IMG/VR virus record: IMGVR_UViG_3300031716_000030
Location: 1-35,540 of that record
Strand: one strand, 5' to 3'
From: a virus
Taxonomy: Duplodnaviria; Caudoviricetes
Length of the DNA stretch: 35,540 nt
The notes under the pieces are model-generated. The model ran no database searches. It saw nothing but the letters and a program-made list of their open reading frames with translations, and was not told the origin of the DNA. The position numbers and the translations under genes were made by a program. Shown piece by piece: positions 563 through 35,540 of the stretch. Each line of letters opens with the position of its first letter. The stretch's first letter is position 1.

Positions 563-622
563 ACTGTACAACCAGCGCCTTTGTTTTGCAAGTAGATTGT
601 TGATGATTTACATGAAAATAGT
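563..622 (-). promoter_or_regulatory. Early sigma70-type promoter P1
   Basis: TTGCAA (591-586), 17 bp, TACAGT (568-563); block nearly identical to 33905-33963. Confidence 0.8.
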
Positions 623-819
623 GGGGCCATGAAATCGGGCCTTTGGCGGCGTCTGGCGTCTGGTGGCAGTCGGTATCGGAAAGGATAGGGAAAACTCGCG
701 TGAGCCCGTACCAGCGAGTCATGCTACACGAGCGCTGAACGGGACTGGAGCCGGGTCTGGTTTCGACTGGGAGGTTGTTACCTCGACACCATGCTTTCGG
801 GTCTCACGCGATTTCTACC

Positions 820-19932: not shown

Positions 19933-20297
19933 ATTTCCCTCGTGGTCTTTTTTAGGATGCTAACAGTTGCTGAACCAGCACGGTCGCCAGCAATGAGCGC
20001 AGCCGCAACGATACCATCGCGTTGCTTCCGCGGCATATCTTCGGTAAGGGGATGTTCATCCAGATATCGTTCCCGAGCAAGCAGGGACTCGGGCGGAATG
20101 GCGCCGACATAAATTTCTCCTGCGAAAGACATGGACGAAAACTGCCCGGCACGCTTGTTGCGCTCTTCTACATCATGAAAGTGCTCTGCATATGTAACGC
20201 CATAACGGACAAGAACTTTTCCATCTTCAATGATCGCAACGTAATGGTACATCAGTCCCCCTCCATAGAGTGTATCAGCACCACCTTTATTTTGCAA
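19929..20297 (-). CDS. Hypothetical protein
   Basis: Probable start at MYHYVAII after GGAGG. Confidence 0.55.
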   Translation of the reverse strand: MQNKGGADTLYGGGLMYHYVAIIEDGKVLVRYGVTYAEHFHDVEERNKRAGQFSSMSFAGEIYVGAIPPESLLARERYLDEHPLTEDMPRKQRDGIVAAALIAGDRAGSATVSILKKTTREM

Positions 20298-33470: not shown

Positions 33471-33593
33471 CTAGATCCCCATGAATTCGTAGGTCAAGTT
33501 CGCGTTCCATCCGGCGGGAGCATTGATCCAGACCCAAGCCGCAATGACTTCACCAGTCGAGCGACGCCTAACCGTATAAAATCCGCTTTTCAT
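33471..33593 (-). CDS. 40-aa early hypothetical protein
   Basis: Not in ORF track; MKSGFYTVRRRSTGEVIAAWVWINAPAGWNANLTYEFMGI*; purine-rich SD continuous with twister 3' end. Confidence 0.6.
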   Translation of the reverse strand: MKSGFYTVRRRSTGEVIAAWVWINAPAGWNANLTYEFMGI

Positions 33594-33601
33594 CTTCCTC
33601 T

Positions 33602-33659
33602 CCTCCCTCCGCTTTCTCTCACCCTGGGACTTGGGACCGCAGGCGTTGGCGCGTTGAGG
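33602..33659 (-). ncRNA. Twister ribozyme, type P1 (copy 2)
   Basis: CCT-C^AA-CGC-GC-CAACG-CCTGCGG-TCCCAAGT-CCCAGG-GTGAGAGAAA-GCG-G-A-GGG-AGG: P1, P2, P4, T1 CCC/GGG, T2 GC/GU and catalytic A/G present. Confidence 0.75.
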
Positions 33660-33683
33660 CCCGGCGCTTGGCCGGGATGGTTG

Positions 33684-33866
33684 TTAGCTGTTCGCTTTGT
33701 CAGCTGCCGTCTTAGCCTCTGCCTCGGTTTCGAACAGCCACTTACGTAGCTCTGTTCCGGGCTCAAGGAACTTGCCATTGTCGTATTCGACGGCAAACTT
33801 TCCATCGACTCGTTTAACCACGATGTATTTGCCGCTCACTTTGCCAAGATCGTAAAACTTGATCAT
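33684..33866 (-). CDS. Small early hypothetical protein (60 aa)
   Basis: AAGGA SD then MIKFYDLGKVSGK; first gene after P2. Confidence 0.6.
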   Translation of the reverse strand: MIKFYDLGKVSGKYIVVKRVDGKFAVEYDNGKFLEPGTELRKWLFETEAEAKTAADKANS

Positions 33867-33904
33867 TTTCTCATCCTTTGGCGTTTCCGCCGTCCACATC
33901 TCCA

Positions 33905-33963
33905 ACTGTACATCAGACTCTTTTGTTTTGCAAGTAGATTGTTGCTATGTTTGCGAAAATAGT
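33905..33963 (-). promoter_or_regulatory. Early sigma70-type promoter P2
   Basis: TTGCAA (33933-33928), 17 bp, TACAGT (33910-33905); duplicate of P1. Confidence 0.8.
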
Positions 33964-33964
33964 T

Positions 33965-34180
33965 TCACGGTAATTCTCGCACAGTGCCAACACCAGAGGC
34001 GCCACATGTTTGACACATGCAACGCAGACTTGAGGGCTTAGTCATACAGTTCCACCACCAGTCGGTACCGCAGTGGGTGAAACACACACGGAACTTGGGC
34101 TTTTGCTTATGCGTGACCCGGGTTCGGCTAGTCAGATGGCTCGACTGTCCGTTGTGGATCAGCTCGACCATTAAGTTCAT
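33965..34180 (-). CDS. Small zinc-ribbon-like protein
   Basis: CFTHCG...CMCQTCG; start uncertain (ATG 34180 overlapping stop of a short upstream ORF). Confidence 0.45.
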   Translation of the reverse strand: MNLMVELIHNGQSSHLTSRTRVTHKQKPKFRVCFTHCGTDWWWNCMTKPSSLRCMCQTCGASGVGTVRELP

Positions 34181-34227
34181 GACCATGACCACGATGGTGT
34201 GTGCTTGATGATGATCTTCATAGACAT

Positions 34228-34280
34228 CCTCCACTCCCCATTGCTCGCGGACTTGTGACCGCCGTTGGTTGGGTTAGAGG
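34228..34280 (-). ncRNA. Twister ribozyme, type P1 (copy 1)
   Basis: CCTC-T^AA-CCCA-AC-CAACG-GCGG-TCACAAGT-CCGC-GAGCAA-TGGG-G-A-GTG-GAGG: all helices and both pseudoknots (CAC/GTG, AC/GT) fully paired. Confidence 0.9.
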
Positions 34281-34306
34281 CCCCTCCGAAGAGGGGTCTG
34301 CACGGG

Positions 34307-34639
34307 TCAGTCAGCCACGCGACGAATCTCGGCCGGCGTGTACTCAACCTGGAAGGCCTGCCGATACTTGCCGGGAGGCACGGCGATGGTCGCGTGCTCC
34401 TCATGCACAAGTTCCGCAGTCTTCTTGGCCCAGATGCTCTGGGCCCCTCCTGTCGCACCGTCAAGGAACAGCTTCACGCCGAAACCTTCCTCAAAGCGAT
34501 GATGATGACCGGTGACTTCGCCCAGGGCGAGGACCACCTTCTTGTCGGGCTGTTCCTTGCCCGTGATTTCGTCAGTGGGGACGAGTAAGACGTCTCCCTG
34601 GCGTACGATCTGCTGCTCCATGAGCAACCTCCTTTTCAC
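34307..34639 (-). CDS. Conserved His-rich partner of DUF6745-like proteins
   Basis: RQGDVLL, LALGEVTGHHH, LVHEEHATI..PPGKY..QVEYTP..RRVAD. Confidence 0.75.
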   Translation of the reverse strand: MKRRLLMEQQIVRQGDVLLVPTDEITGKEQPDKKVVLALGEVTGHHHRFEEGFGVKLFLDGATGGAQSIWAKKTAELVHEEHATIAVPPGKYRQAFQVEYTPAEIRRVAD

Positions 34640-35540
34640 GTTTCTACCGCCGGGAGGTATTCCCGGTAGTCTTTGAACTCAAGCGAACCGTCAGCCTTTC
34701 GCCACGTAGACGCCATGGCTGCGTGAACATCGCGTGATGCCATGCCGTTGTAGGCACTGGGATCGATGCGGATATGATAGAGCTTCGTGGTGCCATCAGG
34801 CTCTGGCGTCGAGTTACGGCACTCGATCATCACGATAGGTTCATCTTCCGGAATCTCGCGATATAGTAGACGGGAGCCGCGCAATCCCTTGACCTTGTGA
34901 CGCGAATTGCCACGGTGGACAACCTTGGCTCCAGCGCCGACCAGATATGCGGCGAGGCCACCTGGGAACCGTTCCAGCATAACACGACGCACCTCGGCGT
35001 TGCGTTCGGCGTCAACGGCTTGGACGGTGATCTGTTCGGGATTCATGATGACGAACTCGGGGACTCGCACGCCATGGACGGCATAGATGCTCCAGCCATC
35101 AGGATACCGTACAGCCGGACCCGTGACTGAATGAAGGCGATGGAGTTCGTCCTGGTTGACGATCTCATGACGTTCGGAAATCCAGCAGACCTTCTCATGA
35201 GGAATGGCCCACCCCGCCGAATTGGCAAGAGCTGTCAGACCCGACAACTTCTCGGTCTCTGCCGATAATCCCGTCACCTCACGGAAGAACTCGTAGAATG
35301 CCAACCAGTTGGCGTCGTGTTGCCCATACATGGAGTCCCACACGGAGGCCCCCGCGGAGTCCCCCACGGAGGCCCCCACGGAGTCCCCCACGGAGGCCCC
35401 CACGGAGTCCCACACGGAGTCCCGCACGGAGGCCCGCACGGAGTCCCGCACGGAGGCCCCCACGGAGTCCCACACGGAGTCCCGCACGGAGGCCCGCACG
35501 GAGTCCCGCACGGAGTCCCCCACGGAGGCCCGCACGGAGT
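34636..35540 (-). CDS. C-terminal part of DUF6745-like repeat protein
   Basis: [60 protein letters not shown]. Confidence 0.85.
35333..35540 (-). repeat. 12-bp tandem repeat SV[RWG][DA]
   Basis: About 17 units; last 36 nt match positions 3-38. Confidence 0.95.

Follow-up and report, generated by a model that had tools for sequence, protein, structure and literature searches.

The window analysed here is the IMG/VR contig IMGVR_UViG_3300031716_000030 at its full length of 35,540 bases, which is the whole available assembly. Its main open reading frames all lie on the minus strand. Scanning 48 ORFs against Pfam and PHROG identified a terminase, a portal, an O-like initiator, a DnaC-like loader, methyltransferases, a Lar-like protein and a DUF6745 protein, and by this gene set the contig is that of a tailed phage. 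The ORF at 441-1 ends in repeats identical to those that open the DUF6745 ORF at 35538, so the contig appears to be near-circular, with the assembly break falling inside the DUF6745 repeat. This repeat is a long tandem array of units of about 12 nt (441-1 and 35540-35330).

Two candidate self-cleaving ribozymes, Tw1 and Tw2, lie in a group of small genes that precedes the replication genes (Table 1). The small Cys-rich protein encoded by orf71 has no Pfam or PHROG match, and a search by its homologue gave no viral locus. The leader ORF that follows Tw1 is predicted from the overlap of its stop codon with the orf71 start to be translationally coupled to orf71. For orf60, the first gene after the promoter-like element P_B, the sole match in a homologue search was its own record.

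Table 1. Features of the ribozyme region and of the putative promoter that feeds it
Feature	Position	Strand	Description	Basis
DUF6745 gene	34636..35540	-	5' part apparently at 441-1	Pfam scan
phrog_27831 gene	34307..34621	-	upstream gene, 104 aa; stop 11 nt before Tw1 hairpin	PHROG
Tw1 hairpin	34281..34296	-	6-bp GC stem, UUCG loop; abuts P1; no U-tail	
Tw1	34280-34228	-	type-P1 twister, compact (without long P3)	structure, Rfam, own model
Leader ORF	34177..34221	-	14 codons, after Tw1; stop overlaps orf71 start (ATGA)	
orf71	33965..34180	-	Cys-rich small protein	77% identical homologue P0002
P_B	33905..33965	-	promoter-like, between the ribozymes; -35 TTGCAA 33933, 17-nt spacer, -10 TACAGT 33910, AT-rich upstream	
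orf60	33684..33866	-	first gene after P_B	ORF list
Tw2 hairpin	33660..33676	-	6-bp GC stem; directly 5' of P1	
Tw2	33660-33601	-	type-P1 twister, divergent	structure, own model; TJE1 homologue
40-aa ORF	33471..33593	-	directly after Tw2	ORF list
P_A	563..625	-	promoter-like, TTGCAA-17-TACAGT at 591; upstream of DUF6745 start	

Tw1 can be folded into P1 CCUC/GAGG, P2 CCCA/UGGG, T2 AC/GU, P4 GCGG/CCGC and T1 CAC/GUG, with a predicted cut at U^A (34276^34275) and a putative general-base G, by consensus position, at 34236. Tw2 folds into a P1 of only 3 bp (CCU/AGG), P2 CGC/GCG, T2 GC/GU, a bulged P4 and T1 CCC/GGG, and its predicted cut is at C^A (33656^33655). The distance between the two predicted cuts is 620 nt; a first-pass annotation of the same DNA had given these two sites, and the folds give the same positions. 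Both motifs carry the conserved core (N^AA at the cut, GU-NNN-AA-NN-C in L4 and GA before the T1 3' strand) and match the invariant columns of twister alignment A1. Both have the P1, P2 and P4 stems of type P1 with the termini in P1, a T1 of 3 bp and a T2 of 2 bp, P1 and P2 being 4 bp each in Tw1 and 3 bp each in Tw2. With the published type-P1 twister (Roth et al. 2014, RF03160; via PMC5408937 and PMC6154101) they share P1, P2, P4, T1 and T2, the cleavage-site A, the L1/L4 nucleotides and the termini in P1. They differ from it in being compact, without a long P3, and Tw2 differs also in its C at N-1, its G.U pair in T2 and its bulged P4. With these three departures and its short P1, Tw2 is the weaker fold of the two, and being divergent it may cleave slowly. 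A C at N-1 is found in 3 of the 119 other twisters among the matches listed, for which the main search pattern favoured one subfamily.

In the Rfam twister-P1 model (RF03160) Tw1 scores 40.1 bits (E 1.7e-6) and Tw2 19.4 bits (E 1.5). Neither reaches the gathering threshold of 67.2 bits, and at that threshold Rfam gives no match in the window. The threshold is likewise missed by four clear compact twisters of other phages (41–56 bits), and such compact forms are sub-threshold because the model expects a long P3. We also built a covariance model on 29 compact twisters, all from contigs other than the window, and it gave 63 bits for Tw1 (E 1e-15) and 26 bits for Tw2 (E 5.7e-5), these E-values being rough. 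A full structural descriptor (P1, P2, P4, T1, T2 and the core letters) found exactly two sites in the window, Tw1 and Tw2, whereas all 100 dinucleotide shuffles of it gave no site; the descriptor had been loosened to permit G.U in T2 after a stricter version with Watson-Crick T2 matched Tw1 alone. A descriptor for type III hammerheads had no match in the window.

In alignment A1, which holds 29 of 31 compact twisters (two with a longer P3 were omitted), two-sided changes occur at 14 of 18 pairs. This count is largely circular since the descriptor enforced most of the pairs, and it was not used as support. Between Tw1 and Tw2 themselves, T1 and P2 differ by two-sided changes, in agreement with the compensatory changes reported in the first-pass annotation, while the change it had also listed for T2 is one-sided (A-U to G.U). 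Its central observation, a pair of type-P1 twisters on the minus strand, is borne out by the folds, the core letters, our own model and the shuffles. We assign both motifs to the twister class by structure and not as members above the Rfam threshold, and their cleavage is a prediction.

At each ribozyme the order of elements is the same: stop codon, hairpin, ribozyme, ribosome site, start codon. A stable hairpin directly 5' of each cut had been noted before, and both are present and abut P1. The Tw1 stem is 6 bp and not 8, because its final CC belong to P1, and the stability of either hairpin alone is not unusual against shuffles (z -0.5 and -1.8). The Tw1 hairpin is predicted to be the 3' end of the upstream cleavage product. 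On the other side of the ribozyme, the P1 3' strand GAGG of Tw1 doubles as the ribosome site of the next ORF, and that of Tw2 overlaps the ribosome site of the 40-aa ORF, the best ribosome site covering 4 of 4 and 3 of 3 nucleotides of the strand, respectively.

The stretch after orf71 that holds P_B has a GC content of 35%, and less than 1% of the 60-nt windows along the contig are that low. The element recurs at 591 with 23 identical bases, and a third copy lies at 20297. Together with two sites in a related phage locus, L001, these form a promoter-like family with TTGCAAAA(C/T)AA, a 17-nt spacer and a TA...T hexamer (window 33933, 20297 and 591; L001 3537 and 1561). P_B has only 8 of 12 consensus matches, and a stock promoter scan missed it for that reason. 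Its repetition and position make P_B likely to be a promoter as far as sequence can predict one, with transcription starting near 33898. P_A is the likely source of the transcript reaching Tw1. The stock scan called no terminator between Tw1 and Tw2. The layout is consistent with two transcription units, P_A-DUF6745-phrog_27831-Tw1-orf71 and P_B-orf60-Tw2-orf40-orf61. Between P_A and the DUF6745 start there is a long stem-loop leader (window 545-462, minus strand), and L001 contains a close copy of the terminator-like hairpin that the window has at 847-828.

L001 is the nearest relative found. It has a homologue of orf71 (35% identity, E 8e-9), and 241 nt of its downstream non-coding region are 74% identical to the window. 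Its early region starts with a terminator-like hairpin, a promoter (TTGCAA-17-TATACT), an ORF, a hairpin with a type III hammerhead (Rfam E 1.1e-5) and two ORFs; a hairpin with a twister, a 46-aa ORF, a hairpin with a variant twister and further ORFs follow, and the region ends with the orf71 homologue, a second promoter (TTGCAA-17-TAGTAT) and the non-coding region. The variant twister (2325-2265, minus strand) has P2 as in Tw1 and extra unpaired bases around L4; it was missed by Rfam and by the descriptor and was found by model R1 (E 1e-5). L001 thus contains three cassettes in a row, one with a hammerhead and two with twisters, each after a stop codon and hairpin and before a start codon. 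As one of these cassettes carries a hammerhead, the ribozyme class is interchangeable within the cassette, and the promoter after orf71 is conserved, since L001 has it after the orf71 homologue. L001 retains the first twister, the Cys-rich gene and the promoter after it. The orf60-Tw2 block is absent from L001, and no ribozyme follows its orf71 homologue. What is conserved between the two sequences is therefore the single cassette, with an interchangeable ribozyme, and not the 620-nt bracket.

A close homologue of Tw2 is found in a cultured phage, Tetrasphaera phage TJE1, where it is unannotated (locus L184 4972-5060; HQ225832.1 at about 40,990-41,050). There, one Tw2-like twister lies in a stop-hairpin-twister-start cassette before an ERF gene, and it is the single cassette within the 10 kb examined. 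Because this phage is in culture, the function of the cassette could be tested in a real infection.

Pattern scans of viral, metagenome and genome collections, whose main search pattern favours one subfamily, yielded at least 119 non-redundant twisters outside the window. A locus that is the window's own DNA (L188) was left out of all counts, and loci L004-L007 were left out of the pair and strand counts and of the cassette counts on the 119 twisters. Among the matches listed, 86 of the 119 have a hairpin of -8 kcal/mol or lower in the 30 nt before P1, and in 81 of these 86 the hairpin ends within 2 nt of P1. A U-tail follows the hairpin in only 3 of the 86, which argues that these hairpins are not terminators. 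A ribosome site with an ORF of at least 25 aa lies within 55 nt downstream in 82 of the 119 among the matches listed. In a control set of 98 twisters among the matches listed, the window's two included, the hairpin before P1 is present in 70, against 12 and 16 of the 98 in windows further upstream. An ORF ends just upstream in 76 of the 98, and the same is true of 546 among 1960 random positions; for a ribosome site followed by an ORF the counts are 60 of the 98 and 313 of 1960. This enrichment of stops and starts is overstated because the random positions are mostly coding, and part of it reflects the intergenic location only. The stop-hairpin-ribozyme-ribosome site-start cassette is, on these sequences, the norm among twisters and not peculiar to the window.

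A twister is present in 163 of the 230 loci examined, and none of the 163 has twisters on both strands. At least 39 adjacent pairs were found, all on the same strand, of which 25 are non-redundant and 24 lie outside the window. The spacing in these other pairs, at least 24 in number, is free and ranges from 250 to 1923 nt. The pair counts are lower bounds, as variants, the second L001 twister for one, escape the descriptor, and neither they nor the strand counts are independent, because loci overlap. In the window, both motifs are intergenic and co-oriented within a phage contig, which is the layout of clustered ribozymes. The flanked genes vary between genomes; L001 brackets other genes, and the span differs among the other pairs. 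Loci selected for the 288-aa gene that lies downstream as a neighbour held a twister in 0 of 80 viral cases (model R1), so the twisters are not tied to that gene, and Rfam on 16 of these 80 loci gave tRNAs only. A search by the phrog_27831 protein recovered four distant loci, none with a twister. An Rfam gathering scan of 20 twister loci found one type II hammerhead and one FuFi-1. Mixed-class clusters were seen in two loci, one with a pistol ribozyme about 500 nt after the twister (L003 3014-3084) and one with a type II hammerhead about 1.4 kb after it (L041 2916-2986), each on the same strand as the twister.

The reading that we favour, with a probability of roughly two in three, is that the window carries two separate copies of a common phage cassette, each of which would cut a passing message once and so leave linear pieces, a hairpin-capped upstream mRNA and a downstream mRNA with a structured leader, uncoupling the small early genes from one another. 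Transcription starting from P_A at 591 would cross the assembly break and continue over DUF6745 and phrog_27831 as far as Tw1. The upstream piece is predicted to end in a protective hairpin and the downstream piece to open with a folded 5'-OH leader before the next ribosome site. With a second start at P_B, orf60 would be carried on an RNA of about 240 nt whose 3' end would lie at Tw2. The likely benefit is that stability and translation of the small early genes could be set independently of their neighbours, which would allow genes to be gained and lost as modules. Any stabilisation of the downstream piece is doubtful, because in an E. coli reporter cleavage by a twister in the 5' UTR, with the ribosome site free, is described as leaving mRNA and protein unchanged (PMC5052635). 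The protein-independent mRNA segmentation put forward in the first-pass annotation fits both the anatomy and the comparative data, with cleavage as its inferred step; the part of that proposal concerned with a circular RNA does not fare as well.

That part held that the two cuts excise a circularisable RNA of 620 nt. In full, a read-through transcript from P_A would be cut at both twisters, host RtcB would close the piece, and an out-of-register junction would resist recutting, giving a natural and functional phage circular mRNA with orf71 and orf60. We consider this very improbable. The ends of the piece, 5'-OH and cyclic phosphate, would indeed be of the kind that RtcB joins (PMC8782182), and at the window junction P1 would re-form by only 1 bp in register, which might slow recutting. 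However, the promoter-like P_B lies inside the piece, L001 lacks the closing ribozyme, and the whole Tw1 core from A+1 would be retained intact as the 5' end. A twister is reported to cut off a single nucleotide at an almost wild-type rate without P1 (PMC5408937), and with P1 dispensable and the core intact a circle would likely recut itself. The 3' fragments of hatchet and HDV removed the adapters that RtcB had ligated, an analogy only, as that account (PMC8782182 section 5) makes the statement for these two ribozymes and not for twister. Nor do the ends of the other pairs suggest ligation. Among at least 24 of them the junction re-forms three or more P1 pairs in 7, against a mean of 3.4 in swapped pairs, so re-formed P1 is not avoided, and the end-to-end duplex energy of -12.0 kcal/mol (swapped pairs -11.4 +/- 0.5) shows no pairing beyond chance. 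The window pair, at -11.8 kcal/mol, is inside the swapped-pair range and has no ligation stem. Within the 620-nt piece the first 60 nt form 3 pairs with the last 60, folding as a circle (-193.0) is no better than as a linear RNA (-196.3), and the piece is not unusually structured (z -1.4). Pfam and PHROG found no RtcB-like gene among the 48 phage ORFs. For clustered hammerheads, Perreault et al. (2011) state, with the data not shown there, that a search for spliced or circular products detected none (PMC3088659). Contigs from four sequencing runs contain no joints; three of these are DNA runs, two of which hold short pieces of the region in small shares, and the contig from the RNA run, 192 nt identical to 34929-35120, covers neither cut and does not reach the ribozyme region, so that these runs speak neither for nor against cleavage or circles. 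A viroid-like or rolling-circle arrangement is likewise not seen, the window having two divergent same-strand motifs in a DNA phage genome and no locus of the 163 having both strands occupied. The pair is probably not one circle-making device, and a 620-nt piece, which would come only from P_A read-through, is best interpreted as a side product of two cassettes that are independent of each other.

The remaining alternatives accept single cuts and differ as to their consequence. Cleavage might mainly switch on translation, the P1 5' strand (CCUC, CCU) masking the ribosome site until the cut frees it. The complete overlap of ribosome site and P1 3' strand in both window twisters fits such a role, as does an engineered twister with the site in P1, whose active form raised reporter output 5-fold over the inactive form (PMC5052635). 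Yet the overlap occurs in only 13 of 82 other cassettes among the matches listed, where the median start lies 27 nt downstream, masking by a P1 of 3–4 bp that is also dispensable would be weak, and constitutive fast cleavage gives no evident control point; we judge it unlikely. Somewhat less likely again is that the cassettes are near-neutral passengers of small mobile genes, their cleavage of little effect and Tw2 perhaps decaying. Their distribution is patchy, as in the 80 loci of the 288-aa gene without a twister, the orf60-Tw2 block is missing from L001, and Tw2 departs from the consensus at several points, but all pairings of both folds are intact, with T1 and P2 changed on both sides, and a ribozyme of another class is found in an identical hairpin-ribozyme-ribosome site order, which suggests selection. 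Lower still we place a destabilising function like that of glmS, by which cleavage would open the early message to host nucleases and shorten the life of the downstream mRNA. Cleavage followed by degradation in glmS is the one well-understood bacterial case (PMC6765202), whereas both new ends look shielded rather than exposed here, the 3' end by the hairpin and the 5' end by the folded core, and a twister 5' end is described as buried in one discussion of such ends (PMC8782182 section 5).

The segmentation of phage messages by ribozymes has precedents. Perreault et al. (2011) described hammerheads that flank single genes or short blocks in prophages, proposed processing into shorter, operon- or gene-length mRNAs, and observed cleavage of clustered or tandem hammerheads in vitro and in E. 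coli (PMC3088659). A 2019 review extends this idea to twisters while calling the purpose unproven (PMC6765202), and its section 13 cites Felletti, Bieber and Hartig (2017) for the processing of polycistronic mRNA by bacterial twisters; the reporters in that study, according to the review, had twisters in the 3' UTR, unlike the arrangement here. Bacterial ribozymes are also said to lie in clusters and close to phage genes, for reasons not understood (PMC10085705). As in the clusters of Perreault et al., several same-strand self-cleaving ribozymes lie here between small, variable phage genes (PMC3088659), with the differences that these are twisters and not hammerheads (L001 uses both) and that an internal promoter-like element splits the pair between two transcription units. 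The window pair is one more example of a layout known in phages since 2011. Two further papers, on eukaryotic RNA viruses (PMC13725137) and on human cell reporters (PMC10761166), have no bearing on the locus.

The window pair can also be compared with an engineered circularisation cassette. Tornado, the engineered twister system, reportedly removes both catalytic cores and joins the ends through a long stem. The two resemble each other in that two ribozymes would leave 5'-OH and cyclic-phosphate ends on one RNA; the window piece differs from what is said of Tornado in keeping a complete core and having no end stem.

The optional twister stem P0 is a hairpin 5' of P1, and we take it that the upstream hairpin of the cassette may be the same element. 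P0 is given for 21% of annotated twisters (PMC6154101). A literature search, made without Roth et al. 2014 and Felletti et al. 2017, found no published count of the stop-hairpin-ribozyme-ribosome site cassette. The purpose of self-cleaving ribozymes in bacteria and phages is still open (PMC6765202 section 13; PMC10085705), and this locus alone does not move the question. The cassette counted with controls (86 of 119 with the hairpin, among the matches listed), together with a hammerhead in the place of the twister, points to a natural insulator-like module.

Downstream of Tw2 there is a stretch of about 800 nt (33260-32450, minus strand) that is ORF-poor and hairpin-rich. It has no Rfam family and an overall folding z of only -1.7, and it is a possible cluster of non-coding RNAs. 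The 241 nt that are 74% identical in L001 (1297-1068) are the last of this stretch, and in L001 the ORF-poor stretch begins directly after the promoter. The window stretch includes two tRNA-like elements (32785-32690 and 32583-32520, minus strand) with clear T-arms and acceptor-like stems. Their D and anticodon arms are irregular and ARAGORN calls neither, with 0 genes reported in the window. True tRNAs occur 1.8–4.4 kb upstream of the 288-aa gene in loci L235 and L245.
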